From: Candidatus Korobacteraceae bacterium
GTDB taxonomy: Bacteria; Acidobacteriota; Terriglobia; Terriglobales; Acidobacteriaceae
DNA: 64,000 nt
Reading direction: 5' to 3'
NCBI GenBank assembly: GCA_049519595.1
Contig: JBEKQP010000001.1
Span: 3,399 to 67,398, forward strand
Positions 322 to 21,929 of the stretch are shown piece after piece. Within the stretch, counting starts at the first letter, position 1; each line of letters begins with the position of its first letter. The notes under the pieces were generated by a model. That model had not been told where the DNA came from, did not search any database, and saw only the letters and a program-made list of their open reading frames with translations. Made by a program: the position numbers and the translations under genes.

Positions 322-1044
322 GTGGTGCTTTCACCGTACGGTTTAGACATCATCGAAAGCTGCCTGAGCTGCAAGATGAAGACGGATCGCTTATTCTGCG
401 ATCTGCCTGCATCGGCGCTCCAATCATTCGAAGCCATTAAATATGCTACCGCTTATCCGAAGGGTGCCGTGCTGTTTGTCGAAGGACAGGCTCCGCGCGG
501 TATTTTTGTTCTTTGTAAGGGACGCGTAAAGTTGTCCATTTGCTCAACCGACGGCAAGACGCTCATTCTCAAGATCGCCGAATCAGGCGAAGTGCTGGGT
601 CTGAGCGCCACAATCTCCGGAAAACCTTATGAGCTAACGGCGGAAACCGTCGATCCTTGCCAGATCAATTTCGTCAAGCGCGAAGATTTCTTGCGCTTCC
701 TGCGCGAACACAGTGAAGCCTGCCTGCGTGTCGCGGAACAATTGAGCGAGAAGTACAACACTGCCTGCCGCGAGATTCGCTCGCTCGGTTTGTCGCACTC
801 GGCTGCCGAAAAGTTGGCCCGGCTGTTGCTGGACTGGAGTGCTCGCAACGGCGAGGCTAACAAGCAGGAGCCGCGCGTGAAATTGGCGCTCACCCACGAA
901 GAAATCGCGCAGATGATCGGCACTTCGCGCGAGACCGTGACGCGCCTCTTTGCCGAATTGAAGAAGCGGCAGATCGTGCAGGCCAAAGGTTCAACGCTGG
1001 TGATCCGCAACAAGGCGGCGTTGAAATCCCTGGCTACGGTCTGA
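322..1044 (+). CDS. Crp/Fnr-family transcriptional regulator, FNR-like (N-terminal Cys cluster, cNMP-type effector fold, C-terminal HTH)
   Basis: ORF 154..1044. Effector domain (GQAPRGIFVLCKGRVKLS, GEVLGL) and C-terminal HTH (LTHEEIAQMIGTSRETVTRLFAELKK). Start placed at GTG 322/325 because the motif SCLSC-x7-C, upstream of ATG 376, is conserved in the paralogue at 1255. The exact start is uncertain. Confidence 0.85.
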   Translation: MVLSPYGLDIIESCLSCKMKTDRLFCDLPASALQSFEAIKYATAYPKGAVLFVEGQAPRGIFVLCKGRVKLSICSTDGKTLILKIAESGEVLGLSATISGKPYELTAETVDPCQINFVKREDFLRFLREHSEACLRVAEQLSEKYNTACREIRSLGLSHSAAEKLARLLLDWSARNGEANKQEPRVKLALTHEEIAQMIGTSRETVTRLFAELKKRQIVQAKGSTLVIRNKAALKSLATV

Positions 1045-1094: not shown

Positions 1095-1122
1095 GCCCCG
1101 CAAATCTGCGGGGCATTTTTTT
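1095..1122 (+). terminator. rho-independent terminator after the first FNR-like gene
   Basis: gccccgca-aatc-tgcggggc forms an 8-bp GC-rich stem, followed by a T7 run. Confidence 0.75.
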
Positions 1123-1254: not shown

Positions 1255-1749
1255 ATGGAGAGCGCCACTCAACCGAGCTGTTATTACTGTGAGTTCCGGC
1301 CCGACCGGCTCTTCTGCGACATGCCGGTCGACGCGTTGCAATTGCTGGATACGGTTAAGTCGCTGGCCATTCACCCGAAGGGCTCCGTATTATTTGCCGA
1401 AGGCCGGCCCGCGAGAGGGATCTTCGTCCTCTGTGACGGACGTGCCAAGCTCTCCATCTGCTCGGAGACAGGCAAGCGTCTTATGCTGCGCATCGCCGGG
1501 CCCGGTGAGGTTCTCGGCCTCGGCGCCGCAATGTCCGGAACGCCTTATGAAATTTCGGCCGAATTGCTGGATACGTCGCAAGTGATGTTCATCCGCCGCA
1601 AAGACCTGTTGAAGTTCCTGCGCGATCACAGCGATCTTTGCATCCGGGTGGTGCAAATGCTAAGCCAGGATTTGCATGCGGCTTACGAGCGCGTGCGCTC
1701 GATTGGCCTTGCCAGAACGCGGCGGCCGCGCGCAGCGCAGGCGGATTAG
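1255..1749 (+). CDS. FNR-like paralogue with effector domain only; the HTH domain is missing (truncated gene, possible pseudogene)
   Basis: Within ORF 1135..1749, ATG 1255 gives MESATQPSCYYCEFRPDRLFCDMP..., colinear with gene 1 up to ...RVRSIGL. It then diverges and stops after 164 aa. A REP hairpin starts 28 nt after the stop. Confidence 0.6.
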   Translation: MESATQPSCYYCEFRPDRLFCDMPVDALQLLDTVKSLAIHPKGSVLFAEGRPARGIFVLCDGRAKLSICSETGKRLMLRIAGPGEVLGLGAAMSGTPYEISAELLDTSQVMFIRRKDLLKFLRDHSDLCIRVVQMLSQDLHAAYERVRSIGLARTRRPRAAQAD

Positions 1750-1958: not shown

Positions 1959-1974
1959 AGTGATTAAGGTCACA
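1959..1974. promoter_or_regulatory. CRP/FNR-type box AGTGA-TTAAGG-TCACA upstream of the first cytochrome gene
   Basis: 9/10 match to TGTGA-N6-TCACA, about 90 bp upstream of GTG 2055. A second weaker box, TGTGC-TTATTC-TCACT, lies at 1981..1996 (22 bp centre to centre). Confidence 0.4.
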
Positions 1975-2054: not shown

Positions 2055-4058
2055 GTGAATCGCCACGCCAAACTCTTACTGATATTCGTACTGCTGACCG
2101 GGTTAGCCGAAGCCAAGCAACCGCTGAAAGCGCAGAAGTTCACCAATGCGGATTGCCTCGCCTGCCATGCCGACGCATCGTTGACCAAAGACGAGAACGG
2201 CAAACAAGTGAGCCTGCAAGTGAAGGAGGAGCAATTCAAGAACTCCATTCACGGCAGCATGTTCAGTTGCACGGATTGCCACAAGGATGTCACTTCCGTT
2301 CCGCATGAATCCACGCCCGCCAAATTATCGTGCGCGCAGTGCCATGCCGACGAGCAGAAGGCGTACGATAACGGGCTGCATGCCAAGGCGCGTGCGGCCG
2401 GTGACCAGCAAGCCGCGCGTTGCGTTGACTGCCATGGCGATCTCCATGAGATTCTTCCCGCAAGCGATCCAGCCTCCAAGGTCAGCCACAAAAACATCGC
2501 GGCCACCTGTGGCAGTTGCCATGGCCGGCAATCGGTGATGCAGCAGGCGGGAGAGACCACGCGGCCTTTCAACTCCTACCAGGACAGCGTTCACGCCAAG
2601 CTGGTGGCTGCCGGCAACGAGAAGGCAGCGGTTTGCAGCGACTGCCACGGCACCCATGACATGCGCCGCGTTTCCGATCCGCAGTCGCCCGTTTACAAGA
2701 CCAACGTGCCCGCCACCTGCGCCAAGTGTCACGCGGCCCAGAGCGCGGAGTTCATGACGAGCATTCATGGGCAGGCGATCAGCAAGGGCAATTTACATGC
2801 GCCGGTCTGTACCGATTGTCACAGCTCGCACATGATCAAGGACGCCAAGGACCCGAGTTCGACCGTTTCGTCGGAAAATCTGGCAACCAACACCTGCGCG
2901 CAGTGTCACGAGAACGTGAAGATGTCGCAGGACTTCGGAATCGTAGGCGGTCGTGAGAGCAGCTACCTGGCCAGCTACCATGGATTAGCCACAGCCCGCG
3001 GATCGAAGGTTGCGGCCAACTGCGCCAGTTGTCACGGCGTGCACAACATCCTGCCTTCGATCGATCCCAACTCGACCATCAACCCGGCGCATATCGTGCA
3101 GACCTGCGGCAAGTGCCATCCTGGCGCGAACGCTAATTTCGCGGCCAGCAAGATGCACCTGGATGCGCACGCCGCCGATATCGGCAGCAAGGCCGTAGCT
3201 CTCATCCGCCGCTTCTACCTGTTGATGATCATGGCCACCATCGGCGGCATGCTTTTGCATAACGTTCTACTCATGCGGCGCAAGCTGGCCGACATTCGCA
3301 ATGGGCACGCGCACATCGCGGGTGGTCCCAGAATCGTGCTGCGCATGACCTTCAACCAGCGCATGCAACACATGACTTTGTTCGTCAGCTTCTTCGTATT
3401 GGTGGCTACGGGCTTTGCGCTGAAGTACCCTGAATCGTGGCTTGGAATGCTATTCCTGGGCGAGACCGTTCGCGGCGTGCTGCACCGGATCGCGGGCGTG
3501 GTCCTGATCATGGTTGGCATCTATCACGCCTGGTACGTCTCGGCGACAAGGGAAGGCCGCAAACTGGTCGTTGATTTCCTGCCCGAGTGGAAGGATGTCA
3601 CCGATGTCAAGGACGTGTTGTTCTACTACCTGCGCCTGAGCGCAAACAAACCTCAGTTCAAGCGCTTCAACTACGCCGAGAAGATGGAGTATTGGGCACT
3701 GGTGTGGGGAACGATTGTCATGGCTTTGACCGGCGTCATGATCTGGGCCAAGGTGGAGTTTGGCAATCACCTGCCGCGATGGGTCATCGATGCGGCCACG
3801 GCTATTCACTTCTATGAAGCCATCCTCGCCTCGTTGGCAATTCTGGTGTGGCACTTCTACATGATCATCTTCGATCCGGAGGTCTACCCCATGAATTGGG
3901 CGTGGTACGACGGCAAGGTGACCTACGAGCTCTATGAATCAGAGCATGCGCTCGATGTGGAAACGCTGAATCAGGCTGTGGAGGCCGATACCCGCGCCGA
4001 AGGCCAACCGGAAGGGCCCGTCGAGGAGGCCGAAGAAAATCTTCCGGATCGTAAATGA
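2055..4058 (+). CDS. multihaem cytochrome c (11 CXXCH) fused to a C-terminal FdnI/HydC-type dihaem cytochrome b membrane domain (CbcL-like quinol dehydrogenase)
   Basis: Signal peptide MNRHAKLLLIFVLLTGLAEA. Eleven CXXCH motifs: CLACH, CTDCH, CAQCH, CVDCH, CGSCH, CSDCH, CAKCH, CTDCH, CAQCH, CASCH, CGKCH. These are followed by about 5 TM helices with conserved His (QHMTLF, LHRIAG, YHAWY, IHFYEA, WHFY). Confidence 0.9.
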   Translation: MNRHAKLLLIFVLLTGLAEAKQPLKAQKFTNADCLACHADASLTKDENGKQVSLQVKEEQFKNSIHGSMFSCTDCHKDVTSVPHESTPAKLSCAQCHADEQKAYDNGLHAKARAAGDQQAARCVDCHGDLHEILPASDPASKVSHKNIAATCGSCHGRQSVMQQAGETTRPFNSYQDSVHAKLVAAGNEKAAVCSDCHGTHDMRRVSDPQSPVYKTNVPATCAKCHAAQSAEFMTSIHGQAISKGNLHAPVCTDCHSSHMIKDAKDPSSTVSSENLATNTCAQCHENVKMSQDFGIVGGRESSYLASYHGLATARGSKVAANCASCHGVHNILPSIDPNSTINPAHIVQTCGKCHPGANANFAASKMHLDAHAADIGSKAVALIRRFYLLMIMATIGGMLLHNVLLMRRKLADIRNGHAHIAGGPRIVLRMTFNQRMQHMTLFVSFFVLVATGFALKYPESWLGMLFLGETVRGVLHRIAGVVLIMVGIYHAWYVSATREGRKLVVDFLPEWKDVTDVKDVLFYYLRLSANKPQFKRFNYAEKMEYWALVWGTIVMALTGVMIWAKVEFGNHLPRWVIDAATAIHFYEAILASLAILVWHFYMIIFDPEVYPMNWAWYDGKVTYELYESEHALDVETLNQAVEADTRAEGQPEGPVEEAEENLPDRK

Positions 4059-4238
4059 TTTTGCCCGCTCCTAGAGAAAGCTCTGAGTTACTGGAAGAGC
4101 TCTGGTAAGATCCTGGAATGATGTGAGCTGATTCTCGTGGGGAGAATCACGTGGGGAATCAATAGTTGTGGATAGCACTAATGTTTTGATTTTGGATGGC
4201 ACTACAGCACGTATTCCTGGTTTTGCCGTAAGTTTTGG

Positions 4239-6338
4239 ATGGCATTCATGAAGAGCAAGTATCAGCATAGCCGCGCTTGTGGCTCAAGGATGGCGCGTGC
4301 AACGGAGTGGGCTTGCCGCTACCGCGCAGTGACGCGTGCGGTTGTCATGGCGGCAATTCTTCTGGCGCTCGGTGTGAGTCTGCCGGTTGGCCGCGCCCAG
4401 GCCGCCGAAGCCTCGGGCCAAAACGATCTCTGCTTCGGCTGCCACAGTGATAAGAGCATGAGCACCAAGCGGGCCGGCCGGACGGTCTCGCTTTTTGTGG
4501 ATGGGAAGAAGTTTTCCGCTTCGGTGCACGGCAGCCTGGCTTGCACCAACTGCCATGCCGATCTCGAAGGCGCCGATATTCCACACTCCACGCCCAAAAA
4601 GGTGCAGTGTGGCACCTGCCATGCAGAGCAGCAGGGACTGCTTGCCAAGTCGCTGCACGGCAAAGCCGCTGCGCGCGGCGATGCGCTGGCTCCACGCTGC
4701 GTCAGTTGCCACGGCAATCATGACATCCTGCCGGTAAAGGACAAGAATTCGGCTGTGGCGCCGATGAAGGTGCCATTCGTCTGCGGAAGCTGTCATCGCG
4801 AGGGCACGCCGGTTCAGACGCAACGTCACATTGATCAGCACAACATCATCGAGAATTACACCGAAAGCATCCACGGCGAAGGATTGCTGAAGAAGGGTTT
4901 GATCGTCGCGGCCAACTGTGCTTCGTGTCACACCGCGCACTCGATTCTGCCGCACACCGATCCCAACTCCTCCATCGCCCGGCGTAACATCGCGGCGACC
5001 TGTACCAAGTGCCATGCCGAGATCGAAGCGGTACACCGCAAGACCATCCGCGGCGAACTGTGGGAAAAGGAAGCGAACGTTCTGCCCGCCTGCGTGGACT
5101 GCCACCAACCGCACAAAGTGCGAAATATCTTCTACAGCCAGGGCATGGCCGATGCCGATTGCATGCGTTGCCACAACAACCAGGCTTTGAAGTCGGCGGA
5201 TGGCCGCTCCATGTTCGTCAAGGCGGCGGAGCTCTCCGGTTCGCGTCATGTCAAGGTCGCTTGCAGCCAGTGCCACTCGGAGGTAAACGCCTCGAAGGTT
5301 CGTCCCTGCGAGACCATTACCAAGCCGGTGGATTGCAGCAAATGTCACGAAGCCGTGGGGCAACAATACCAGCGGAGCACTCACGGGCAACTATTTGCGA
5401 AGCAGGACCGTAATGCTCCGACCTGTCGGGAGTGCCATGGCACGCACGGCATTCTTGGCAAGCAGGATTCGCAGTCGGCGACATTTCCGCCTAATGTTCC
5501 AAATCTTTGTGCACGGTGCCATCGCGAAGGCCAGCGCGCCGCCGTGCGCTACACCGGCACGCAGCATGACATCACCACGCACTACAGCGAAAGCATTCAC
5601 GGCAAGGGTCTGCTGAAGAGCGGCCTGACCGTGACTGCCACTTGCTCCAGTTGCCACACCGCGCACGGCGAATTGCCGGCCAGCGATCCCGAGTCGACGG
5701 TCAATAGTAAGAATCTTCCGGCAACCTGCGGCAAGTGCCATCACGGCATCGAAGAGCAGTTTGTGCAGAGCGTTCACTCCGCGACGGTCACCAAGACCGA
5801 CAAGCCATTGCCGGTTTGCAGCGATTGCCATACCGCACACTCCATTCGTCGAGCCGATGAAGATGGGTTCAAGCTCGAAATCATGGACAGGTGCGGCAAG
5901 TGCCATGCCGAAATTGCCAAAACCTACTTCGATACCTATCACGGAAAGGTATCGCGGCTCGGCTACACCAAGACCGCCAAGTGTTACGACTGCCACGGCG
6001 CCCACGATATCCAGAAGGTGACGGACCCGAGGTCGCACCTGAGCCGTGCCAACGTAGTCGCCACTTGCCAGAAGTGCCACGTCGCCGCCACACGTCGCTT
6101 TGCCGGATATTTGACGCACGCAACGCATCACGACCCTAAAAAGTATCCCTTCTTGTTCTGGGTGTTCTGGGGCATGACGTCGCTGCTGGTTGGAACCTTT
6201 ATCGTCGGTGGCGTGCATACGCTGTTGTGGCTGCCACGTGCCTTCGAGATGCGCCGCGAGTTGCTCGCGGAGGAAGCTGCGCTCGAAGACAAGCCGGAAA
6301 GTCCCGCCGCGGAGGATAAGCAGAATGGTGACAAGTAG
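4239..6338 (+). CDS. multihaem cytochrome c, 19 CXXCH motifs, with a C-terminal membrane anchor
   Basis: 19 CXXCH counted, from CFGCH to CQKCH. Signal-like N-terminus (AVVMAAILLALGVSLPVGRAQA) and a single C-terminal TM (YPFLFWVFWGMTSLLVGTFIVGGV). Alternative starts are ATG 4248 and 4290. Confidence 0.9.
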   Translation: MAFMKSKYQHSRACGSRMARATEWACRYRAVTRAVVMAAILLALGVSLPVGRAQAAEASGQNDLCFGCHSDKSMSTKRAGRTVSLFVDGKKFSASVHGSLACTNCHADLEGADIPHSTPKKVQCGTCHAEQQGLLAKSLHGKAAARGDALAPRCVSCHGNHDILPVKDKNSAVAPMKVPFVCGSCHREGTPVQTQRHIDQHNIIENYTESIHGEGLLKKGLIVAANCASCHTAHSILPHTDPNSSIARRNIAATCTKCHAEIEAVHRKTIRGELWEKEANVLPACVDCHQPHKVRNIFYSQGMADADCMRCHNNQALKSADGRSMFVKAAELSGSRHVKVACSQCHSEVNASKVRPCETITKPVDCSKCHEAVGQQYQRSTHGQLFAKQDRNAPTCRECHGTHGILGKQDSQSATFPPNVPNLCARCHREGQRAAVRYTGTQHDITTHYSESIHGKGLLKSGLTVTATCSSCHTAHGELPASDPESTVNSKNLPATCGKCHHGIEEQFVQSVHSATVTKTDKPLPVCSDCHTAHSIRRADEDGFKLEIMDRCGKCHAEIAKTYFDTYHGKVSRLGYTKTAKCYDCHGAHDIQKVTDPRSHLSRANVVATCQKCHVAATRRFAGYLTHATHHDPKKYPFLFWVFWGMTSLLVGTFIVGGVHTLLWLPRAFEMRRELLAEEAALEDKPESPAAEDKQNGDK

Positions 6339-6339
6339 T

Positions 6340-7263
6340 ATGGACAAGCGCACAGAAGAACCGCCCGCGCCTGACAATTCGCGCAACAGCCCAACCGCGA
6401 ATGAACTCGCCACGTATATGAAACCCGCCGGTGCGGTGCGGCGTGAATTCGTCCGCTTCACCCGCCTGCAGCGCACGCTTCATGGGTGCATGGTCATCAG
6501 CTTCCTCAGCCTGGCCACGACCGGCTTGACGCTGAAGTTTTCTTACACCAGGTGGGCCTCTTTCGTGTCGCGACTGCTGGGCGGATTCCAAACCGCCGGT
6601 TATATCCACCGCTTCGCCGCGCTGGTGATGTTTGCCGCTTTCGTGACGCATCTCGTGGATCTCTGCAAGCTGAAAAAGAGGAAGTACGGCTCATGGCGAT
6701 CGTTGTTGTTCGGGCCAAATTCGATGATCCCGATGAAGCGCGATCTGGATGAGTTCATCGTCACCCTGAAGTGGTTCCTGCACCTTGGTCCGAAGCCGGA
6801 GTACGGGCGCTGGACATACTGGGAAAAATTCGACTATTTCGCCGTGTTCTGGGGGGTCTTCATCATCGGCTCCACCGGCCTGACTCTCTGGTTTCCGGTT
6901 TTCTTCACTCGCTTCCTGCCGGGAGCATTCATCAACGTAGCCACCATCATTCACAGCGACGAAGCGCTGCTTGCCACCGGATTCATATTCACCGTGCACT
7001 TCTTCAATACACATTTGCGGCCGGAGAAGTTCCCGATGGATACCACGGTTTTCACCGGGCGCATGGCGCTCGCGGAATTGAAACGGGACAAGCGCAAGGA
7101 ATACGACGCGCTGGTTGCGAGCGGCGAACTGGAGCAGCATCTGGCTGAGCCGCACCCGGAAATCGTCGTCAAAACCATCCGGGCCTTTGCCTGGGTTGCG
7201 CTCGCCATCGGTTTCAGCATCGTGGTGTGGATCGTGTATGCCATGCTGTTCGCCTATCGCTAG
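6340..7263 (+). CDS. FdnI/HydC-type cytochrome b membrane subunit
   Basis: In frame within ORF 6190..7263. ATG 6340 lies 1 nt after the stop of the 19-haem gene. TM helices with His ([38 protein letters not shown]) are colinear with the C-terminal domain of the 2055..4058 product. Confidence 0.85.
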
Positions 7264-7291
7264 CAGGTTGCTGAAAAACTGTTCTCTGAGG

Positions 7292-7390
7292 GTGCCATCC
7301 TGAGCGTAGTGAAGGATCTGCTGTTTGTGCGTGCTGAAAGCAAAGCATGCTGGGTGGTCCATTCAAGCTTCTTTTGCTTGAGTGGGGCGG
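7292..7390. repeat. composite intergenic repeat: REP-B box plus REP-A hairpin
   Basis: gtgccatcctgagcgtagtgaaggatctgctg (7292..7323) followed by ggtggtccattcaagcttcttttgcttgagtggggcgg (7353..7390). Confidence 0.8.
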
Positions 7391-7454
7391 TTTGCGGCTT
7401 GGCTGCTGCTCGGGCCTCCGGCTCGGAATGACATTTCCATTGAGATATTCAGCT

Positions 7455-7470
7455 TGTGACGCACTACACT
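7455..7470. promoter_or_regulatory. CRP/FNR-like box TGTGA-CGCACT-ACACT upstream of the ImcH-like gene
   Basis: The left half and the first spacer bases (TGTGACGC) are identical to the box at 17059. The right half has one mismatch. It lies about 55 bp upstream of ATG 7520. Confidence 0.3.
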
Positions 7471-7519
7471 AGGTAGTCTCGTTTTCCGATATGATTAAGG
7501 TCGTGGGAGACAACGTACG

Positions 7520-9052
7520 ATGAGCGACGAGGGAACGCCTCTTCCGCCGACTCCACTGGCGGAGGACCTTTCGCTGAAGGGTCTACTTCGCAACTACATC
7601 AGCTTGATCGGACTCGCGTTGGCGGTCGTATCGCTGGCGAACATCATCTTCTTGTTTCTGATCGATGTCGTTTCCAGCCAGCCCAGTCCCTACATCGGCA
7701 TTTTTGCCTACATGGTGATGCCCGCATTCCTGGTGACGGGCTTGTTCCTGGTGCCTGTCGGGATGTGGATTGAGCGTCATCGGCACCGCCGCAGGATTGC
7801 AACTCTGCACCGCTTCCCGATCCTGGATCTGAATAGCGCCTCGCAGCGCGGTACGATCGCATTCTTTCTGTCCTCCGTGATCCTGTTCATTCTGCTCACG
7901 GCCGCTGGCAGTTATCGTGCCTACGAGTACACCGATTCCGTCCAGTTCTGCGGTCAACTCTGCCACACGGTGATGCATCCGGAATTCACCGCGCACCAAG
8001 CCTCGCCGCACGCTCGGGTTACGTGCGTCGACTGTCACGTGGGAGCTGGCGCGAACTGGTACGTCCGCTCCAAGCTGTCGGGCGCGCGGCAGGTCGTCAA
8101 GACCGTGTTGAACACCTATCCCCGTCCGATCGAAACGCCCGTGGCCAACCTGCGTCCGCCTCAGGAAACCTGCGAGCAGTGTCACTGGCCGAGAAAGTTC
8201 TGGGGAGCGCAATTAAAGGTCATCAATCATTTTTCCAGCGACGAGCAGAACACTCCCCGGCAGTTGCAGTTGCTGATCAAAACCGGTGGCGGCGATCCGA
8301 ATGCCGGCCAGGCAAGTGGAATCCACTGGCACATGAACATCGCCAACATCATCACCTACGCCTCCGATCCCAAGCGGCAGAACATTCCCTACGTGCGCAT
8401 TCAGGACATGAAAGGCAATGTCACCGAGTATTTCGCGCGCGATGCTAAATCCGAAGAGATCGCCAAGATGAGCAGCCGGCGCATGGATTGCGTCGATTGC
8501 CATAACCGCCCCACCCACATTTATCTCGCCCCCGATCGCTCGGTAGATGACTCGCTCGCAGCCAATCGGATTGATCCGAGTTTGCCATACGTGAAGCAGC
8601 AATCGGTCCAGGTGCTGACGGCGGCTTATAAGACGACACCCGAAGCGATGCAGGCTATTGCCGCTGCAATTCCGGCGTTCTATCGCGAAAAATATCCGCA
8701 GGTTGCCGCCGCCAAGCAGGCGCAGATACAAGCTGCGGTCGCCGAGCTACAGCGTGTTTTCCGCACCACCATCTTTCCGGAGATGAAGGTCGACTGGCGT
8801 ACTCACCCGAACAATGTCGGTCACTATTATTTCCAGGGATGCTTCCGTTGCCACGATGGCAACCATGTGAGCAAGGACGGCAAGACGATTAGCAAGGATT
8901 GCAACTCCTGCCATACCGTGCTGTCGCAGCAGGAAGGCGCGAAGTCGCTCATTGCCTCCACCACCGGAATCGTCTTCAAGCATCCGGTGGACTTGGGCGA
9001 TCTTACGGCCGTCAACTGCTCCGACTGTCACAACGGCGGCGTCGGCCCATAA
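7520..9052 (+). CDS. membrane-anchored multihaem cytochrome c, NapC/NirT-related and ImcH-like (3 TM; 6 CXXCH plus 1 CX3CH)
   Basis: Three N-terminal hydrophobic helices. Then FCGQLCH (CX3CH), followed by CVDCH, CEQCH, CVDCH, CFRCH, CNSCH and CSDCH. Confidence 0.85.
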   Translation: MSDEGTPLPPTPLAEDLSLKGLLRNYISLIGLALAVVSLANIIFLFLIDVVSSQPSPYIGIFAYMVMPAFLVTGLFLVPVGMWIERHRHRRRIATLHRFPILDLNSASQRGTIAFFLSSVILFILLTAAGSYRAYEYTDSVQFCGQLCHTVMHPEFTAHQASPHARVTCVDCHVGAGANWYVRSKLSGARQVVKTVLNTYPRPIETPVANLRPPQETCEQCHWPRKFWGAQLKVINHFSSDEQNTPRQLQLLIKTGGGDPNAGQASGIHWHMNIANIITYASDPKRQNIPYVRIQDMKGNVTEYFARDAKSEEIAKMSSRRMDCVDCHNRPTHIYLAPDRSVDDSLAANRIDPSLPYVKQQSVQVLTAAYKTTPEAMQAIAAAIPAFYREKYPQVAAAKQAQIQAAVAELQRVFRTTIFPEMKVDWRTHPNNVGHYYFQGCFRCHDGNHVSKDGKTISKDCNSCHTVLSQQEGAKSLIASTTGIVFKHPVDLGDLTAVNCSDCHNGGVGP

Positions 9053-9082
9053 CCTCAGTTTCGGAAGAAGTAACCTGAATGC

Positions 9083-9183
9083 GGGTGCCCCATTCAAGCG
9101 AAGCTTGGGTGGGGCTTTTATTTGTAATCGCAGCCAGAGCTGCTGGTGCCCCCCACATCTGCCGTAGTAAGCAAGGGTGGGGC
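9083..9183. repeat. two REP-A hairpin elements
   Basis: gggtgccccattcaagcgaagcttgggtggggc (9083..9115) and ggtgccccccacatctgccgtagtaagcaagggtggggc (9145..9183). Confidence 0.75.
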
Positions 9184-9256
9184 TTCATTTCTCCCCGCCC
9201 ACTACCCGTTTTCGCTTCCTCTTTACACCGTAGGGGTGATTCTGCGAAATTAGAAC

Positions 9257-10816
9257 GTGGAACATCCCCCGATTGAATCCATCGTCATCCTCGATTTCGG
9301 CTCGCAATATACCCAATTGATTGCGCGCCGCGTCCGTGAGCAGAACGTTTTCTCCGCCGTTCTGCCGTGTACCGCGGCACTGCCGGAAATCCAAAATTAC
9401 AACCCCGTCGGCATCATTCTTTCGGGCGGCCCATGCTCGGTTTACGACGCTGATGCGCCGCCGGCTGACGCTCGCGTCCTTGCCCTTGGTGTGCCCGTGC
9501 TCGGCATTTGCTATGGCTTGCAATTCATCGCTCACAAACTCGGCGGCAAAGTGAGTCCCGGCGTAAAGCGTGAATACGGCCACGCTGAGGTATCTCTCAT
9601 CGACAAGTCTCCATTGTTTGAGGGTTTGCCCTCGCAGATGAGCGTCTGGATGTCGCACGGCGACGAAGCCTTGGAGTTGCCGGCGGGCTTTCAACTTGTC
9701 GCCAGATCCGCCACTGCGGTGGCTGCCATCGAAGACCGTGCCAGGCGCATCTTTGCCGTACAGTTCCACCCTGAGGTCCACCACACCAGTCACGGCACCG
9801 ATATCCTGCGCAATTTTGTCTTTCGAATCTGCGGAGCCAAGCCGAACTGGACCGCGCAGCGTTTTATCGAATCCACGGTCGAAAGTGTGCGCCAGACAGT
9901 TGGGCCCTCCGGACGCGCCATCTGCGCCATTTCCGGCGGCGTAGACTCATCGGTGGCGGCCACGCTGGTTTCCCGTGCGCTGGGCGAGCGCCTGACCTGC
10001 ATTTTCGTCAACAATGGGGTGCTTCGCAAGCATGAGTTCGAAAAGGTGCAACGGAATCTGCGCAGCAATCTCGGACTCAACGTGGACGCCGTGGACGCCA
10101 GTGAGCGCTTTTTATCGAAACTTGCCGGTGTTTCGGACCCCGAGCGCAAGCGCAAGATTATCGGCAACGAGTTTATCGAGGTGTTCGAGCACGAAGCGCT
10201 CCGCCTCAAGCAGACTTCCGGTCACGTCGAGTGGTTGGTGCAAGGCACGCTTTACCCGGACGTAATCGAATCGCGCTCTGTGCGTGGCCCCTCGCAAACC
10301 ATCAAGAGCCATCACAACGTGGGCGGGCTTCCCGAAAAGATGAACCTCAAGCTCATCGAACCCTTGAAAGATCTTTTCAAGGATGAAGTGCGCCGCATTG
10401 GTCGCGATCTCGGCATGCCCGAGGAAATGGTGCAACGGCAGCCGTTCCCCGGCCCCGGCCTGGCCGTCCGCATCTTAGGCGAAGTTACTCCTGAACGCAT
10501 TGCCTTGTTGCAGGAGGCTGACGATATCGTTGTGTCCGAGATCAGGCGGGCGGGCCTGTACACGCAGATTTGGCAATCATTTGCCGTCCTGCTCCCAGTG
10601 ATGTCCGTCGGCGTGATGGGCGACCAGCGTACTTACGCTTATACCTGCGCCATCCGCGCCGTAAACTCCGAAGACGGCATGACCGCCGATTGGGTTCCGC
10701 TCCCATACGAGGTGCTGAAGACAATCTCCAGCCGCATCGTGAACGAAATCAGAGGCATCAATCGCGTCGTCTACGACGTGACCTCGAAGCCGCCCGGAAC
10801 CATCGAGTGGGAGTGA
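9257..10816 (+). CDS. guaA: GMP synthase (glutamine-hydrolysing)
   Basis: GATase-1 N-domain ([24 protein letters not shown]), PP-loop SGGVDSS, and the canonical C-terminus ...[12 protein letters not shown] start. Confidence 0.97.
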
Positions 10817-11166: not shown

Positions 11167-11919
11167 GTGGGAAATCAAGGGACATTGATTGTAACTGGCG
11201 GCAGCAGAGGTATTGGCGCTGCCGTGGCCAAATTGGGTGCAGCCCGGGGGTATTCGGTTGCGGTGAATTACCAGAGCAACCAAGCCGCTGCGCTGGCGGT
11301 GGTCCGCGAGATCGAGGTGGCGGGAGGCCGCGCCATAGCCATTGGCGGCGATGTTGCCAAAGAGCAAGACGTGCTGCGCTTGTTCACCACGGCCACGCGC
11401 GATCTGGGGCCCATCACAGCGTTGGTGAACAATGCTGGCATCACGGGCAAGGCCGGTCGCGTGGAGGCACTTGAGCTTCAAGTTCTGGAACGCGTCCTTG
11501 CTGTGAATGTCGTGGGGGCGGTGCTGTGCGCGCGTGAGGCCGTGCGGTGCATGTCCACTCGTAAGGGCGGCCAGGGTGGCGCTATCGTGAATATCGGCTC
11601 CCGCGCCTCTGAACTGGGTGGCGCCGGCGAGTGGGTCCACTACGGCTTGAGCAAGGGCGCGATTGATACCTTCACCGTAGGCTTGGCCAGAGAAGTCGCT
11701 GCCGAGGGGATTCGGGTGAACGCAGTTTCTCCCGGCTTGATTGATACCGAGTTGCATGCTGCCGCTGGAGTCGCGGATCGTTTGCCCCGGCTTGCCGCTA
11801 CTGTCCCAATACCTCGAATCGGTGAGGCTGCTGAAGTTGCCGAGGGTGTGCTCTGGCTGCTCTCGCCGGCGGCTTCCTACATTACAGGCGCAATTATCCC
11901 CATCAGCGGCGGGCGGTGA
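11167..11919 (+). CDS. short-chain dehydrogenase/reductase (SDR) family oxidoreductase
   Basis: TGGSRGIGAAVA (TGxxxGxG) and the YGLSK catalytic motif. Start moved to GTG 11167, behind GGAGG at 11155, because the N-terminus of ORF 11071 is read through a REP element. Confidence 0.9.
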   Translation: MGNQGTLIVTGGSRGIGAAVAKLGAARGYSVAVNYQSNQAAALAVVREIEVAGGRAIAIGGDVAKEQDVLRLFTTATRDLGPITALVNNAGITGKAGRVEALELQVLERVLAVNVVGAVLCAREAVRCMSTRKGGQGGAIVNIGSRASELGGAGEWVHYGLSKGAIDTFTVGLAREVAAEGIRVNAVSPGLIDTELHAAAGVADRLPRLAATVPIPRIGEAAEVAEGVLWLLSPAASYITGAIIPISGGR

Positions 11920-11987
11920 GTAGTTTCCCGTACACGAAGGGCCATCGCACTTAGGGACATACCACTTAGGTTATCTCCTATATTTCC

Positions 11988-12395
11988 TTGCCTAACAGTA
12001 CTCTTCCGCGAACAGCAATGAACCGGGACATCAAAATCGTTCCGCCGGAAAATGGCTATCCGGCATTGCGCCGGTGGGCGCGCTATCAAGCACACTTGGT
12101 CACCTGCCTCATCGCCCAAAAGCCAAAGAAAGCGGTTATTGTTCCAGGCCGTGGCTCGGAGCTGAACCACGGCGGGATGACTGTTTATGCCGGCGTCGAG
12201 CTGGCGGTCAATGAGCATGTCAGGGTCTCATTCACCCCGCCTTACAGTGGAGAGTCGATGACACTCCAGTGTGTGATTCGCGATCGCAACGGCTATACCT
12301 ATGGCGTCGAATTCATCCACGACGAAATCGCCTGCGACCAAAGCAACCAGATGCAACGCATTCTGGACGCCATTGAAGAGTTGAAGCGCAAGTGA
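11988..12395 (+). CDS. small PilZ-like domain protein (tentative)
   Basis: RRWAR resembles the RxxxR motif and SELNHGGMTV resembles the DxSxxG region of PilZ. Alternative start is ATG 12018. Confidence 0.5.
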   Translation: MPNSTLPRTAMNRDIKIVPPENGYPALRRWARYQAHLVTCLIAQKPKKAVIVPGRGSELNHGGMTVYAGVELAVNEHVRVSFTPPYSGESMTLQCVIRDRNGYTYGVEFIHDEIACDQSNQMQRILDAIEELKRK

Positions 12396-12460
12396 GCGAC
12401 GGGCCCCCGCGCGGGTACACCTCAAAAATTCTCCAATATGCCAATGAATCAAGCGGGGTG

Positions 12461-12500
12461 GGTGGCCCATTCAAGCCGTCTGTTGGCTTGAGTGGGGCAG
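12461..12500. repeat. REP-A hairpin element
   Basis: ggtggcccattcaagccgtctgttggcttgagtggggcag. Confidence 0.85.
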
Positions 12501-12540
12501 TTACTTTCTGAGCGTTCCAGAAAAAGTCTTTCTGAACCAC

Positions 12541-13056
12541 TCAAGCCAATCTGGCCGCTAATCCTATCACTGCCGCGCCCAGGATCGCCCAAGCCGTCGA
12601 GCGTTTGGTGATCACCAGGAAGAGAAAGCTTCCAATGGCGATCACAATCGGAACGATCCCTGTCAGCGAATCGCGAGCGAGCGGGACGGTGGCGCTCACC
12701 AGCAAGCCTGCCGCGGCAAATGTCACGGCCCGTATCGCACTCCTCACGGCTGGCTTGTCGGCCTTGCGGCCCAGGTATTGCAGCAATGGGATGATCAGGA
12801 ACGCCGGCGTGATTACGGCCAGCAACCCGGCGAGGCCCCCTGGAACGCCGCCGACAAAATATCCCACGCTCACGACGAAAAGGCCATTGGGACCTGGTGC
12901 GGTTTGCCCGGCAGCCACCGCCGCGTTCAGTTGCCGGTCCGTCAGCACGTGACGCACCTCGATCAGGTCGTGCCGGATAACTGGAATCGAGGTCACTCCA
13001 CTGAAAGAAGTCAGCGTCGCCTTGGCAAGCAGCAGGTAAAGCACCAGTAGGCTCAT
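12541..13056 (-). CDS. chrA: chromate transporter (CHR family), second half-size subunit
   Basis: MSLLVLYLLLAKATLTSFSGVTSIPVIRHDL...GPNGLFVVSVGYF. The ATGA overlap with the upstream half-gene suggests translational coupling. Confidence 0.85.
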   Translation of the reverse strand: MSLLVLYLLLAKATLTSFSGVTSIPVIRHDLIEVRHVLTDRQLNAAVAAGQTAPGPNGLFVVSVGYFVGGVPGGLAGLLAVITPAFLIIPLLQYLGRKADKPAVRSAIRAVTFAAAGLLVSATVPLARDSLTGIVPIVIAIGSFLFLVITKRSTAWAILGAAVIGLAARLA

Positions 13057-13598
13057 TCCGGTACCCGCCAGACTGTACCAACTACGGCCGCCAGGCCGAG
13101 AACCGCGATCGGCGCCATGTCGAGTGTGAGTGTGAGCAATACCGCACCCCCGGCGAGCACCACAACGTGAATCCAACGCTTGCGGTCGAGGTATGGCTGA
13201 AGTAATTGCCAGGAAGCCATTGCCATGATTCCCACTGCCGCCGCCAGGGTACCGGCGACCGCGGCCATGGCGTTGGAATTCGATCGCACCACGTCATAGC
13301 TGCCGGTGAGCACCATCACAATGATGCCGGTCGGCACGCTCGCCGCCGCCACGCTCGCGATAGCCCCCGGCCAGCCGAGCAACTCCCAGGCGGTTCCCGC
13401 GCAGAAGGCCAGCATGTTCGTTCCCGGCGTAATCCGCGCCAGCGCATAAACCGTGGCGTACTGTTCCTGCGTCAGCCACTTGCGCAGCGACACCAGTTCC
13501 GTGTGCAGCGCCGCCATAGTGATGGTGCCGCCGCCAAACGTTAGATTCGTCACTCGCAGATACGACAAGAAAAGCTTCAGAAGAGACGGACGCTTCAC
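13053..13598 (-). CDS. chrA: chromate transporter (CHR family), first half-size subunit
   Basis: LKLFLSYLRVTNLTFGGGTITMAALHTELV...ARITPGTNMLAF is the typical ChrA signature. Confidence 0.88.
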   Translation of the reverse strand: MKRPSLLKLFLSYLRVTNLTFGGGTITMAALHTELVSLRKWLTQEQYATVYALARITPGTNMLAFCAGTAWELLGWPGAIASVAAASVPTGIIVMVLTGSYDVVRSNSNAMAAVAGTLAAAVGIMAMASWQLLQPYLDRKRWIHVVVLAGGAVLLTLTLDMAPIAVLGLAAVVGTVWRVPE

Positions 13599-17372: not shown

Positions 17373-18074
17373 ATGCCGACCAGCACGCGCGATTTCGAAA
17401 AGACGCTAAGAGGCGCTCCGCTGTTTGCGGGGCTTACGGATGCGCAGTTCAATGTACTGGCATCGCGGCTCGTCGAGCGCAACTTCAACGCCGGAGAGAT
17501 GATCTTTCAAGAGGGCCAGCCTTGCGCCGGAATGTTTATCATCCAGTCGGGGAGCGTGAGAATCTTCAAGAATTCTTCTACTGGCCGCGAACAGGTACTC
17601 TCGATCGAAGGTGCGGGAGCATCAATTGCCGAACTCCCCGTGTTCGACGGCGGCGCCTATCCTGCCTCCTCGCAGACGCTCGTCAGGAGCAGCCTGCTCT
17701 TTCTCAGCAAGCAAGATTTTCACGCTCTTTGCATGCGACACCCGGAAGTCTCGCTCAAGGTTTTAGCCAAAGTCGGTGCAAGGCTGCGGCAGTTGGTTGG
17801 CATCATCGAGGATCTCTCGTTCACCACCGTGCGCCATCGTCTTGCCGCGCTGCTCTTGCGGATGGCGCGCGCGGAGGGCCGCCAGACGCCCGCCGGAACC
17901 GAAATCGTTCTTGCTGCCTCCAATCAGGATATCGCCGCGCAAATCGGAACCGTTCGCGAACTTGTCTCGCGCAATCTCAGCCGCTTCCAAAGTGAAGGCC
18001 TGCTTCACCTCGACGGAAGAACCGTGCTCATTCCCAACCTCGACCGCCTTGAACAGGAGATCGGCGAACCGTAG
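17373..18074 (+). CDS. Crp/Fnr-family transcriptional regulator (no N-terminal Cys cluster)
   Basis: cNMP-binding fold (GEMIFQEGQPCAGMFIIQSGSVRI) and HTH (SNQDIAAQIGTVRELVSRNLSRFQSEG). Confidence 0.9.
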   Translation: MPTSTRDFEKTLRGAPLFAGLTDAQFNVLASRLVERNFNAGEMIFQEGQPCAGMFIIQSGSVRIFKNSSTGREQVLSIEGAGASIAELPVFDGGAYPASSQTLVRSSLLFLSKQDFHALCMRHPEVSLKVLAKVGARLRQLVGIIEDLSFTTVRHRLAALLLRMARAEGRQTPAGTEIVLAASNQDIAAQIGTVRELVSRNLSRFQSEGLLHLDGRTVLIPNLDRLEQEIGEP

Positions 18075-20578: not shown

Positions 20579-21595
20579 CTACTTCGCTCTGGGATGCGTC
20601 TTGTCGTAGACGTCCATCACCTTGCGCGTGGAGAGCTGCGTATAGCGTTGCGTGGTGGCCAGCCGTTCGTGTCCAAGCAACTCCTGGATCGAGCGCAGGT
20701 CCGCGCCTTCCTCCAGCAGATGCGTCCCAAACGCGTGCCGCAGTGTGTGCGGATGCACCTCGGGCGATAATCCATTGGCAACCGCGATGGACTTCACGAT
20801 GCGCCCGACGCTGCGCGTTGTCAGGCGCTTGCCCCGCAGATTGAGGATCAGTGCCGGCGTCTTTGTTGGCCACTCCTGCAGCACCCGTTGACGCGCGTGC
20901 AGATAATTGCGCAATACCCAATCGGCCTTGTCTCCGAACGGCACCAGGCGCTCTTTCTTGCCTTTGCCCCGCACCATGATCCCCTGCTGGCTCCAATAGA
21001 TGTGTTCGACGTTGATGCCGGTCAGCTCCGAGTTCCGGATTCCGCACCCGTAGAGCAGTTCGAGAATCAGTTTGTCGCGCTCGGGAAACGCTGCCTCTTC
21101 AGGCTGTGGCGTATCGAGCACGCGGTTCATCTCTTCGATGGTGGGCACGCGCGGCAATTTTTTCGGAAGCTTCGGCGTGGACACCAGCAGCGCCGGATTC
21201 TGCTTCACCAATTTTTCACGCGCCAGAAATTTGAACAGCGAACGCACTGCGGCAAGCGCCCGCGCCACCGAGGGCTTGGTCAGTCCGTGGTCATAAAGAT
21301 GAGAGAGAAAACCGCGAATCCGAACGTGGTCGACCGCCTCCCACGCGTTCCGGCCAGAATCAGGATCAAGATCACGATGAAGATAAGCCGAAAACTGGTC
21401 CAGATTCGTCTTGTACGCCTTGATCGTGTGCGGCGAGGCATTCTTCTCGCGCAGTGAACGCAGAAACTGAGCCACGTCGCGCGCCACCCTCGACTGCTTA
21501 CCCGCCTTCACCGGCGCGTTCTCGGCCGCCGCTGATCCTTTCACCGTAGCGCCCGCCTTTTTGGCCGTTGACTCTTTCCCCAAAACTTCCTTCAT
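20579..21595 (-). CDS. xerC: tyrosine site-specific recombinase, XerC-like
   Basis: SAM-like N-domain ([25 protein letters not shown]) and catalytic [37 protein letters not shown]. Confidence 0.8.
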
Positions 21596-21610
21596 CGATG
21601 CGCCTGCTTC

Positions 21611-21929
21611 CTGTCATTCCGAGCGTAACAAAATCAAAAACCTCCCGGCGGGTGCCCCATTCAAGCCTTCTGTTGGCTTGAGTGGGGTAGTTCCTTCTGC
21701 CGCCGTTACCATCCAGTTCGACACTCACCGCTCTGTTTACGGCTGTCATCGCTGAGCGTAATGAAATCAAAAAATCTCCCGACTGTCATCCCGAGCGCAG
21801 CGAAGGATCCCAGGGGGCTGTCCTAATCCGCGCCACGTCAGGCTTTCTGACCAACCGCCGAACCTTCGCGAGTGTCATCCTGAGCGGCGGGTGGCCCATT
21901 CAAGCCTTCTTTTGGCTTGAGTGGGGTAG
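21611..21929. repeat. REP-B x4 / REP-A x2 array between the two recombinase genes
   Basis: REP-B at 21611..21635, 21743..21768, 21783..21810 and 21871..21887. REP-A at 21651..21690 and 21890..21929. Confidence 0.8.

Follow-up and report, generated by a model that had tools for sequence, protein, structure and literature searches.

In Geobacter, the inner-membrane cytochromes ImcH and CbcL are menaquinol oxidases that are required for extracellular electron transfer (EET) (PMC4251993; bioRxiv 2023.05.03.539133; bioRxiv 2021.04.15.440034), and ImcH, CbcL, and CbcBA divide the potential range among them (bioRxiv 2023.05.03.539133; bioRxiv 2021.04.15.440034). Homologues of ImcH in Acidobacteria were noted in 2014 (PMC4251993) and tabulated in 2018, including those of Koribacter versatilis and Acidobacterium capsulatum, and a CbcL homologue from Acidobacteria is already on record as well (PMC6295460). 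The EET1 and EET2 porin-multihaem clusters of peat Acidobacteriota have also been described (Fiorito et al., bioRxiv 10.64898/2026.05.27.727921); that preprint covers the outer-membrane and extracellular parts and does not mention ImcH, CbcL, or an inner-membrane quinol module. Here we report on a cluster of four consecutive plus-strand open reading frames (ORF1 to ORF4) in a 64-kb stretch of DNA from a Candidatus Korobacteraceae bacterium, which we will term the window. We assign ORF4 to the ImcH family, ORF2 and ORF3 to a CbcL-type protein that is split between two genes, and ORF1 to a sister clade of CbcL. It is very likely that the cluster encodes quinol/quinone:cytochrome c oxidoreductases, and its main role is probably to pass electrons outward from menaquinol in EET. 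It is credible that the cluster is a variant of a known system and not a new kind of system. Literature searches found no description of the pairing of ORF1 with ImcH, of a split 19-haem CbcL, or of the truncated FNR paralogue and the conserved box that are discussed below.

The four genes carry 37 haem-c motifs (11, 19, 0, and 7 in ORF1 to ORF4), and because a six-frame scan of the whole window did not find more than one CXXCH motif in any further ORF, this clustering is far beyond chance. ORF1 (2055-4058, 667 amino acids) has 11 CXXCH motifs followed by a membrane domain. ORF2 has 19 CXXCH motifs and is 682 amino acids long, or 699 from the alternative start in Table 1. ORF3 (307 amino acids) has no haem-c motif when it is given the start that was called on identical metagenome contigs, and ORF4 (510 amino acids) has a CX3CH motif (CGQLCH) at residue 144 and six CXXCH motifs. 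None of the four ORFs has a CXXCK motif, and no NCBIfam equivalog model scored above its cut-off for any of them. The ORF4 protein is identical on three metagenome contigs (JGI 3300041809, JGI 3300038619, and ENA ERZ27249945), and the gene order on these contigs is the same wherever they overlap the cluster. An initial annotation, made from the letters of the window alone, had described this four-gene, 37-motif cluster, and every anatomical detail of it held up in our ORF and motif scans. It had also stated that the window holds no catalytic terminal reductase, no CXXCK motif, and no porin-cytochrome conduit. We agree: when the window's other large ORFs were compared with Pfam and NCBIfam models, no terminal reductase was found, and neither these scans nor tblastn searches with the MtrA-like and MtrB-like proteins of a sister locus found porin-cytochrome genes. 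We consider the anatomy and the family assignment of the cluster to be well supported and its physiology to be plausible but unproven.

ImcH homologues have been described as proteins of 495-519 amino acids with three N-terminal transmembrane (TM) helices, six CXXCH motifs, an atypical CX3CH motif beside the membrane domain, and a NapC/NirT-like region (PMC6295460; PMC4251993). ORF4 has all of these features, and on this basis we class it as an ImcH-family member. The hydropathy peaks of ORF4 are at residues 30-48, 59-77, and 111-129, and its CXXCH motifs are at residues 169, 218, 324, 441, 461, and 500. In the ImcH of Geobacter sulfurreducens (GSU3259, 507 amino acids), the TM helices are at 13-35, 45-67, and 100-122 and the seven motifs are at 132, 156, 205, 311, 428, 448, and 486 (Table S3 of PMC6295460); all seven motifs of ORF4 are offset from these by 12-14 residues, with a single one-residue indel. 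ORF4 matches Cytochrom_NNT (NapC/NirT, PF03264) at 44.5 bits, with a cut-off of 24.1, and its best sequence match in the PDB is the NrfH chain 2j7a_C (E = 1.1e-6). That search found no solved structure of ImcH. Haem 1 of ImcH in G. sulfurreducens is coordinated by His137 and Gln179, and the Gln is conserved (bioRxiv 2023.05.03.539133). The putative equivalents in ORF4 are His149 and Gln191, which have the same 42-residue spacing (the aligned stretch is KLSGxRQV). Using a machine-read copy of a published alignment, we found that ORF4 is at least 43% identical to G. sulfurreducens ImcH over 268 columns and at least 60% identical to the Koribacter versatilis homologue, where both figures are minimum values, as some letters dropped out in the machine reading, and the alignment is usable for the first ~270 residues. 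The value of at least 43% falls within the range of 31.5-49% that has been reported for ImcH homologues. ORF4 has more than 7,988 relatives, and the nearest are 65-89% identical and belong to Terriglobales or Acidobacteriota where named. So, both the description of the fourth gene as a 3-TM NapC/NirT-related protein with six CXXCH motifs and one CX3CH motif and its suggested resemblance to ImcH were correct.

ORF2 and ORF3 are best understood together. We identified 2,260 relatives of ORF3 in an exhaustive search of 1.84 billion cluster representatives. Among the best 150 relatives with haem-c motifs, most are fused proteins of about 400-1126 amino acids, with a C-terminal b domain and 2-22 CXXCH motifs ahead of it. 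One fused relative (P0123, 957 amino acids, 19 CXXCH motifs) matches ORF2 at 51% over 667 amino acids and ORF3 at 52% over 299 amino acids. Because P0123 matches both halves, it appears that ORF2 and ORF3 derive from one ancestral polypeptide that was cut after its first TM helix. The split is not an assembly error, because the gap is just 1 nucleotide (the TAG stop codon of ORF2 is at 6336-6338 and the ATG of ORF3 is at 6340), because the same split recurs in other loci (L019, L024, L051, L057, L068, L080, and also L086), and because the homologues have uniform lengths (of 3738 matches to ORF2, the top 120 are all of 573-711 amino acids). Many of the ORF2 homologues P0271-P0390 are labelled "uncharacterized protein with PIN domain" by JGI, which looks like a misannotation. 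For ORF3, we rejected a start at 6190 (a 357-amino-acid ORF) in favour of 6340, as the longer ORF overlaps ORF2 and contains a single CXXCH that is out of context.

The initial annotation had proposed a comparison with Pfam's Ni_hydr_CYTB, and at a cut-off of 30.1 bits the membrane domain of ORF1 is well above it (56.4 bits) and ORF3 is just below it (27.7 bits). The membership of ORF3 in a Ni_hydr_CYTB-type family is secured by 1462 relatives at E ≤ 1e-10 and by the alignment of b domains. To compare ORF3 with CbcL, we used representatives with the published motif spacing of GSU0274 (the CbcL of G. sulfurreducens) as stand-ins for the GSU0274 sequence itself. The spacing of its nine motifs is 23, 25, 23, 24, 29, 28, 43, 28 (Table S2 of PMC6295460), and seven representatives have it (P0140, P0152, P0171, P0177, P0190, P0193, and P0196). 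ORF3 is 42-47% identical to these seven, within the family's range of 28.6-100%. ORF2 contains a tetrahaem module with spacing of 30, 28, 45, 28, which is present twice along with a partial copy.

CbcL has been described as having five TM histidines, of which TM1, TM2, and TM3 hold one apiece and TM5 holds the other two (bioRxiv 2021.04.15.440034). We found five invariant TM histidines at these same positions across ORF1, the C-terminus of ORF2 joined to ORF3, the fused relatives, and the ORF1-type proteins of four loci. In the split protein, the TM1 histidine is His643 of ORF2 (in the 682-amino-acid numbering) and the others are His48, His90, His205, and His220 of ORF3. Together, ORF2 and ORF3 have six TM helices, one on ORF2 and five on ORF3, as in the CbcL/MtrH/MtoC family, except that members of that family are single polypeptides and here two genes are involved. 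We assign ORF2 plus ORF3 to the CbcL/MtrH/MtoC family, as a member that has 19 haems and is split. Because the putative b-haem ligands are divided between the anchor of ORF2 and ORF3, the two proteins should form an obligate complex. Conceivably, the 19-haem ORF2, which is anchored in the inner membrane, could extend far enough to contact the outer-membrane conduit directly. An AlphaFold2 model of ORF2, built with 43 homologues, was too poor to judge its shape or for a fold search (mean predicted local distance difference test score, or pLDDT, of 58.6 and predicted template-modelling score, or pTM, of 0.34). In sequence searches of the PDB with ORF4, ORF1, and a CbcL-pattern representative, only NrfH, FdnI, NrfB, and MtrA were matched, and the searches with the latter two queries found no solved structure of CbcL. 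The initial annotation's view of these two genes, as a 19-haem cytochrome with a C-terminal anchor followed by a separate FdnI-type cytochrome b, is upheld by the motifs, the hydropathy, and the alignment.

ORF1, as had been noted, is an 11-haem cytochrome c fused to an FdnI-type cytochrome b. Its haem domain has a repeated tetrahaem module (spacing of 30, 29, 42, 28, present twice) that matches the last four intervals of GSU0274 (29, 28, 43, 28; Table S2 of PMC6295460). Its membrane domain matches the FdnI chain 1kqf_C (E = 1.1e-8 in the PDB sequence search), and its five TM histidines (Table 1) all lie in invariant columns of the b-domain alignment. However, ORF1-type proteins have five TM helices, with an acidic C-terminal tail where the ORF3/CbcL clade has TM6, so ORF1 lacks one of the six helices of the CbcL/MtrH/MtoC family. 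(A few 5-TM members were noted in the survey of the CbcL family; PMC6295460.) Also, the b domain of ORF1 is only 28-31% identical to the seven CbcL-pattern representatives, which is at the lower edge of the family's range. Thus, the claim that ORF1 resembles CbcL needs to be amended: the overall design and the five histidines are shared, but the closer relative of CbcL in this cluster is ORF2 plus ORF3. From these comparisons, ORF1 has the architecture of CbcL but belongs to a sister clade. The sole acidobacterial CbcL homologue in the 2018 survey is a 9-haem, 6-TM protein of another type, and the ORF1 type appears to be absent from that survey (Table S2 of PMC6295460).

To see which of these genes travel together, we examined their neighbourhoods in related genomes. 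A scan of GTDB species genomes gave 80 loci, all of them in metagenome-assembled genomes (MAGs), with the best at 70% identity. Almost all of these are labelled Terriglobia, Blastocatellia, or Thermoanaerobaculia, and some of the other labels (Saccharimonadales, Heliobacteriaceae) probably reflect mis-binning. Our counts are based on 82 loci with an ImcH-like gene, where an ORF1-type gene is one whose b domain is at least 44% identical. An ORF1-type gene is present in 70 of the 82 loci; in 63 of these 70 its end is within 300 nucleotides of the start of imcH, and in 25 loci it overlaps that start or is at most 20 nucleotides away. The ORF2/ORF3 pair is present in only 6 of the 82 loci, so the conserved core is the ORF1-type gene and imcH, with the 19-haem split protein as an accessory. 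The pair is inserted between the two core genes in the window, L019, and L080, and it is upstream of them in L024, L051, L057, L068 (the peat MAG SbA1), and L086. Other arrangements are a fused gene with an ORF3-type b domain that adjoins imcH (L072 and L073, in MAGs labelled Heliobacteriaceae and Nitrospirota) and a split 13-haem gene that adjoins imcH along with a separate gene for cytochrome b (L066, labelled Methylomirabilota). We rejected an NrfHA-type nitrite reductase as an explanation for the cluster, as it has no CXXCK motif and no NrfA-like ORF (a CXXCK with at least three CXXCH) was found in any of 85 loci.

The tight linkage of the ORF1-type gene and imcH, often with overlap, could be taken to mean that their products are obligate partners in Acidobacteriota. 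In Geobacter, imcH is monocistronic and cbcL is elsewhere in the genome (PMC4251993; bioRxiv 2021.04.15.440034). The two proteins could form a cytochrome-only Mitchell redox loop in which ORF1 works inward, from its periplasmic haems to menaquinone at the cytoplasmic face, and ImcH re-oxidizes the menaquinol at the periplasmic face, so that energy would be conserved as electrons move from a low-potential periplasmic or extracellular pool to a higher-potential extracellular acceptor. The b domain of ORF1 is closer to FdnI than ORF3 is (as judged from the scores for Ni_hydr_CYTB and 1kqf_C given above), and ImcH is described as releasing protons on the periplasmic side (bioRxiv 2023.05.03.539133). 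If a loop of this kind did exist, it would generate a proton-motive force by bridging two external pools, such as reduced and oxidized humics or Fe(II) and Mn(IV). But we think that it is very unlikely. The argument is purely inferential, the adjacency is explained equally well by co-regulation of two alternative exits, both of the Geobacter proteins act as quinol oxidases, and no low-potential periplasmic donor enzyme is encoded nearby.

Several of the sister loci also encode a path across the outer membrane. In L004, three extra genes lie between the regulators and the ORF1-type gene; they encode a decahaem cytochrome, an 870-amino-acid protein, and an 88-amino-acid class-I cytochrome c. The decahaem cytochrome scores 266.9 bits against the DmsE family (TIGR03508, cut-off 192.2) and matches the PDB chain 6r2q_A at E = 9e-40, which we take to be the 333-amino-acid MtrA of the Mtr complex of Shewanella baltica. 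The 870-amino-acid protein has a signal peptide and no match in Pfam, and 10 of 11 of its homologues end in L-x-Y/F-x-F. Its model, built with 51 homologues (mean pLDDT 82, pTM 0.72), is an all-beta barrel whose best fold match is MtrB (6r2q_B; E = 9.2e-17, TM-score of 0.69 on the target, 9% identity), with TonB-dependent transporters far behind (TM-score of about 0.4). A profile of this porin did not match any sequence in the PDB, so the likeness to MtrB is visible only by comparison of folds. Homologues of the porin are present in 13 loci. An MtrA-like gene and a gene for a porin of 780-900 amino acids lie between the regulators and the ORF1-type gene in ten loci (L004 at 3668-7787, L007, L015, L020, L029, L032, L033, L070, L075, and L086), most of them with a class-I cytochrome c. 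In L086, which is on a 4.2-Mb contig, a single array on one strand encodes a regulator, a truncated regulator, the MtrA-like protein, an 899-amino-acid porin, a cytochrome c, a Rieske protein, a cytochrome b, a 443-amino-acid multihaem cytochrome, and then ORF2-like, ORF3-like, ORF1-like, and ImcH-like proteins. The Rieske protein, the cytochrome b (which is split), and the 443-amino-acid cytochrome, at 7048-9979, resemble a complex III with a multihaem c subunit and would bring the number of quinol modules in that genome to four. In two Thermoanaerobaculia MAGs, decahaem cytochromes of the OmcA/MtrC family are encoded beside the ORF1-like/ImcH-like pair (L076 at 5488-8779 and L079 at 4006-7163; 448 and 445 bits against TIGR03507, cut-off 209). 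L076 also encodes a DmsE-family MtrA-like decahaem cytochrome above the NCBIfam cut-off, and L079 encodes a 10-haem homologue of the decahaem cytochrome of L004. It has been reported that mtrAB/mtoAB are never adjacent to imcH (PMC6295460), but the loci described here show otherwise. These MtrA/MtrB-like or MtrCAB genes beside the pair support the initial annotation's proposal of electron export from quinol to the periplasm.

A conduit can also run the other way: electrons from extracellular Fe(II) or reduced humics might flow through an MtoAB-like conduit to the quinone pool, with the CbcL/MtoC-type proteins as quinone reductases. MtoC of Fe(II) oxidizers, which is encoded with mtoA, mtoB, and mtoD, is in the CbcL/MtrH/MtoC family (PMC6295460), and the order of genes in Terriglobia, with an MtrA-like, an MtrB-like, a monohaem cytochrome c, and a CbcL-like gene and without MtrC, is similar. 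We nevertheless consider inward flow to be distinctly unlikely. First, the only organisms to which ImcH homologues have been linked are reducers (PMC6295460). Second, the potential of menaquinone (see MqnE, below) is low and its reduction by Fe(II) is uphill, as is well established. Third, three or four parallel quinol modules would make little sense for inward flow in a heterotroph. Fourth, the relatives in Thermoanaerobaculia pair the same genes with reductase cytochromes of the OmcA/MtrC type. Finally, we had considered that the small cytochrome of the sister loci might be MtoD, but this is unsupported, as it has no detectable match to MtoD among the solved structures.

This small cytochrome bears on another alternative. 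In 37 sister loci, a class-I monohaem cytochrome c is encoded in the flank of the ImcH-like gene, most often immediately ahead of the ORF1-like gene, and its best PDB matches are c552, c6, and CcoP-type domains. So, the cluster might encode quinol:cytochrome c oxidoreductases for periplasmic sinks: either the class-I cytochrome c and then cbb3- or aa3-type oxidases at low oxygen, or peroxidases or other soluble reductases. In other words, it might be an alternative complex III or an electron hub. The Rieske/cytochrome b complex within the array of L086 and the FNR-like control, which suits micro-oxic respiration, fit with this idea, and the Terriglobales are mostly aerobes. Furthermore, CymA, a relative of NapC/NirT, serves several periplasmic reductases (bioRxiv 2023.05.03.539133). 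On the other hand, no oxidase, peroxidase, or NrfA-type gene is conserved beside the pair in 85 loci, and the genes that do recur as insertions encode MtrA-like and MtrB-like proteins or MtrCAB. Chains of 11 and 19 haems are not needed to reduce a soluble monohaem cytochrome, and the gene for the small cytochrome was not found in the window. On balance, we view a periplasmic sink as unlikely.

The control of the cluster seems to be conserved. As the initial annotation had recognized, FNR-like regulators sit directly upstream: two ORFs of the CRP/FNR family, CRP1 and CRP2, precede ORF1. CRP1 is 85-90% identical in 26 sister loci, and it matches the NCBIfam models for FtrB, CRP, and Fnr, all below cut-off. 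FNR has four cluster-binding cysteines (three N-terminal cysteines and the equivalent of C122) and targets TTGAT-N4-ATCAA. CRP1 has an N-terminal CX2CX8C and a cysteine that aligns with C122 of E. coli FNR. The recognition helix of CRP1 (RETVTR) is CRP-like. CRP2 keeps the N-terminal CX2CX8C and lacks both the helix-turn-helix domain and the equivalent of C122. It is found at 58-81% identity in 29 sister loci, where it adjoins the full-length regulator, and it may modulate that regulator.

The palindromic box upstream of ORF1 (AGTGATTAAGGTCACA, Table 1) is of the CRP/FNR type and follows the pattern TGTGA-N6-TCACA. With at most one mismatch allowed, 51 of 66 loci have this pattern within the 800 nucleotides that precede the ORF1-type gene. 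When random windows of the same loci were used instead, the number of loci was 8.5 on average and never above 21 (2000 trials). The boxes pile up directly before the ORF1-type gene or the small-cytochrome gene and again directly after imcH, before an AhbD-like gene. We had considered the canonical E. coli FNR box (TTGAT-N4-ATCAA) as the control site but dropped it for the CRP-type box, as there is no match near the cluster; the one match in the 64 kb is distant and is no more than expected by chance. Another CRP-like palindrome at 61-75 (TGTGACGATGTCACA), with a 5-nucleotide instead of a 6-nucleotide spacer, is ~250 nucleotides upstream of CRP1 and may indicate that CRP1 regulates itself.

The AhbD-like radical-SAM/SPASM gene follows imcH in 47 loci, ~100-350 nucleotides downstream and with its own TGTGA-N6-TCACA box. 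It scores 469 bits against the model for haem b synthase, below the cut-off of 500 (for example, the L004 gene at 11819-13081, with its box at 11693). This hints at a link to haem biosynthesis within the same regulon. In many sister loci, imcH is followed by the AhbD-like radical-SAM and YwiC genes and then by the gene for a CRP/FNR-family regulator. The window has a third regulator of this family at 17373-18074 that is 64% identical to it; this gene is ~8 kb from the cluster, and it is GMP synthase that follows ORF4 instead.

The candidate transcription signals in Table 1 are consensus matches. There is a strong terminator-like hairpin on each side of the cluster (1095-1114 and 9087-9115), and no comparable hairpin is found in the ORF1-ORF2 or ORF3-ORF4 spacers. 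It is plausible that the cluster is a single transcription unit. The direct repeats in the ORF1-ORF2 spacer are the only three occurrences of TGGAT(A/G)GCA on either strand of the 64 kb. They are not conserved in the other loci with ORF2, and they are possibly a local regulatory site.

Table 1. Genes and candidate signals in and around the multihaem cytochrome cluster (positions in the window).
Feature	Position	Strand	Details
CRP1, full-length FNR/CRP-family regulator	322..1044	+	240 amino acids; start from sister gene calls
Terminator-like hairpin after CRP1	1095..1114	+	8-bp stem, 7 GC pairs, then T run
CRP2, FNR paralogue	1255..1749	+	164 amino acids; PF00027 only (gene call on identical contig L001)
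CRP/FNR-type palindromic box	1959..1974	.	AGTGATTAAGGTCACA; 81 nucleotides upstream of ORF1 start codon
ORF1, periplasmic domain	2055..3179	+	signal peptide, 11 CXXCH
ORF1, membrane domain (FdnI-type dihaem cytochrome b, predicted)	3180..4058	+	5 TM helices; His402, 439, 477, 585, 600
Three direct repeats TGGAT(A/G)GCA	4169..4244	+	ORF1-ORF2 spacer
ORF2, 19-haem c-type cytochrome	4290..6338 (alternative start 4239)	+	signal peptide; C-terminal TM anchor with conserved His (GGVHTLLW)
ORF3, FdnI/CbcL-type cytochrome b subunit	6340..7263	+	5 TM helices (CbcL TM2-TM6), four conserved His
ORF4, ImcH-family inner-membrane heptahaem cytochrome	7520..9052	+	3 TM helices, CX3CH, six CXXCH
Strong intrinsic-terminator-like hairpin closing cluster	9087..9115	+	13-bp stem, 8 GC pairs, T-rich tail TTTTATTTGT

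We propose that the cluster is an FNR/CRP-controlled operon or a tight gene array and that it encodes three parallel menaquinol:periplasmic-cytochrome oxidoreductases. The organism most likely makes menaquinone by the futalosine route, because the window encodes, at 39318-41367, MqnE (509.6 bits against TIGR03700, cut-off 434.55) next to a UbiA/MqnP-like prenyltransferase. By homology to NrfH and ImcH, ORF4 would oxidize menaquinol at the periplasmic face and release the protons outside, which would be electroneutral. In the complex of ORF2 and ORF3, electrons would cross the membrane via two b haems and enter the 19-haem periplasmic chain, and ORF1 would follow this design too, as a sister version with 11 haems and 5 TM helices in one fused protein. 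If the quinone site of ORF1 and of ORF2:ORF3, which are homologous to FdnI and CbcL, is near the cytoplasmic-side b haem, as the structure of FdnI suggests, then as quinol oxidases they would move electrons outward at the expense of the membrane potential. Such a cost would fit with the lower growth yields that have been reported for CbcL-dependent respiration. Overall, there would be one energy-neutral exit and two potential-assisted exits, which would be turned on when oxygen is scarce and which, if Geobacter is a guide, would serve acceptors of different redox potential with different energy yields. From there, periplasmic cytochromes and an outer-membrane conduit of the MtrAB type, which would be encoded elsewhere in the genome, would relay the electrons to extracellular acceptors, for example Fe(III), Mn(IV), or organic matter in humic or particulate form. 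The anatomy of the genes, their family relationships, the conserved ligands, the synteny, and the conserved box can be seen in the sequences, and in this proposal we infer the menaquinol substrate, the direction of electron flow, the tuning to potential, the control by oxygen, and the identity of the acceptors.

Several observations weigh against outward EET as the main role. Within the window itself, we did not find an outer-membrane conduit, a periplasmic shuttle, or an extracellular cytochrome. The MtrAB-like modules of Terriglobia do not have an MtrC partner, and when a CbcL/MtoC-type gene and the small monohaem cytochrome are considered as well, the layout is like that of mtoAB-mtoD-mtoC in Fe(II) oxidizers. 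The class-I cytochrome c in the 37 sister loci is of a type that usually serves oxidases, and the Terriglobales are known mainly as aerobes. Also, ORF1 is at the edge of the CbcL family, as discussed above, and an oxygen-sensing role for CRP1 is suggested just by the positions of its cysteines.

Elsewhere in the window, we noted three other regions. On the minus strand at 20579-24965, two tandem genes of the tyrosine-recombinase (phage-integrase) family are followed by a DUF72 gene and a LigD primase-polymerase gene; this region could mark a hotspot of rearrangement or be what is left of a mobile element. At 41767-44014, an ORF with ribosome-hibernation-like and sigma-70 region 4 / PhyR sigma-like regions is followed by a baeRF family 10 protein. 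Finally, the minus strand at 55301-57973 encodes a membrane H+-translocating pyrophosphatase (602 bits against Pfam's H_PPase).

The Terriglobales are among the most abundant bacteria of soil and peat and are usually treated as aerobic heterotrophs. The conserved, regulator-linked menaquinol-to-periplasm cytochromes point to a broader respiratory repertoire: once oxygen runs out, extracellular iron, manganese, or humic or particulate organic matter may be respired by many members of the order. This would have a bearing on anaerobic carbon turnover and on the suppression of methane in peat. The natural split variant of CbcL should help in working out how its c and b parts come together, the 11-haem, 5-TM proteins are a distinct sister clade that travels with ImcH, and the box is a candidate regulatory motif with which other members of the regulon could be found.

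How does the cluster compare to known systems? ORF4 is in the same length class as ImcH of G. sulfurreducens (GSU3259) and shares with it the three N-terminal TM helices, the CX3CH directly after TM3, the six CXXCH motifs, the conserved distal Gln, and the identity over the N-terminal half that was given above. In contrast to the monocistronic imcH of Geobacter, the gene for ORF4 is clustered with bc-type cytochromes behind FNR/CRP regulators, and its host is an acidobacterium. A role for ORF4 at high potential would be by likeness to ImcH.

With the CbcL/MtrH/MtoC family, ORF2 plus ORF3 shares the tetrahaem module, the six TM helices, and the five TM histidines, but it differs from CbcL in being encoded by two genes, with the cut after TM1, and in having 19 haems instead of 9. 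ORF1 has the fused c and b layout of CbcL and the same histidines, but it has 11 haems, lacks TM6, and is more distant in sequence. CbcBA (GSU0593-0594) is also similar to ORF2/ORF3 in that both consist of a C-terminally anchored multihaem c-type cytochrome and a separate dihaem b subunit, with a putative b-haem histidine on the anchor helix. However, CbcB has four TM helices and is related to the b subunit of [NiFe]-hydrogenases, with no sequence homology to CbcL, and cbcBA is regulated by sigma-54 and BccR (bioRxiv 2021.04.15.440034). (We compared CbcB by its description.) In contrast, ORF3 can be aligned over its whole length to CbcL-type domains, it has a fifth TM helix, and it is encoded behind CRP/FNR-type regulators, and the order of the genes here is c and then b. 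So, we rejected the identification of ORF2/ORF3 as CbcBA, and because of the four TM helices of CbcB and its reported lack of homology to CbcL, we view the resemblance as architectural only.

The sister loci are similar to the mtoAB-mtoD-mtoC and mtrCAB-cymA-mtrH clusters of Betaproteobacteria that oxidize Fe(II) or reduce Fe(III), as they join an MtrA-family decahaem cytochrome, an MtrB-like porin, a monohaem cytochrome, and a CbcL/MtoC-type gene. They differ from those clusters in that the porin has no detectable sequence similarity to MtrB and in the addition of an imcH gene, and the window does not contain the outer-membrane genes. Finally, the EET1 and EET2 clusters are from the same phylum and order (Terriglobales), contain porin-cytochrome modules, and have been proposed to transfer electrons to organic or mineral extracellular acceptors. 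The difference is that the cluster in the window would supply the inner-membrane link that is missing from EET1 and EET2, and it is a concrete candidate for that link in the EET of peat Acidobacteriota.

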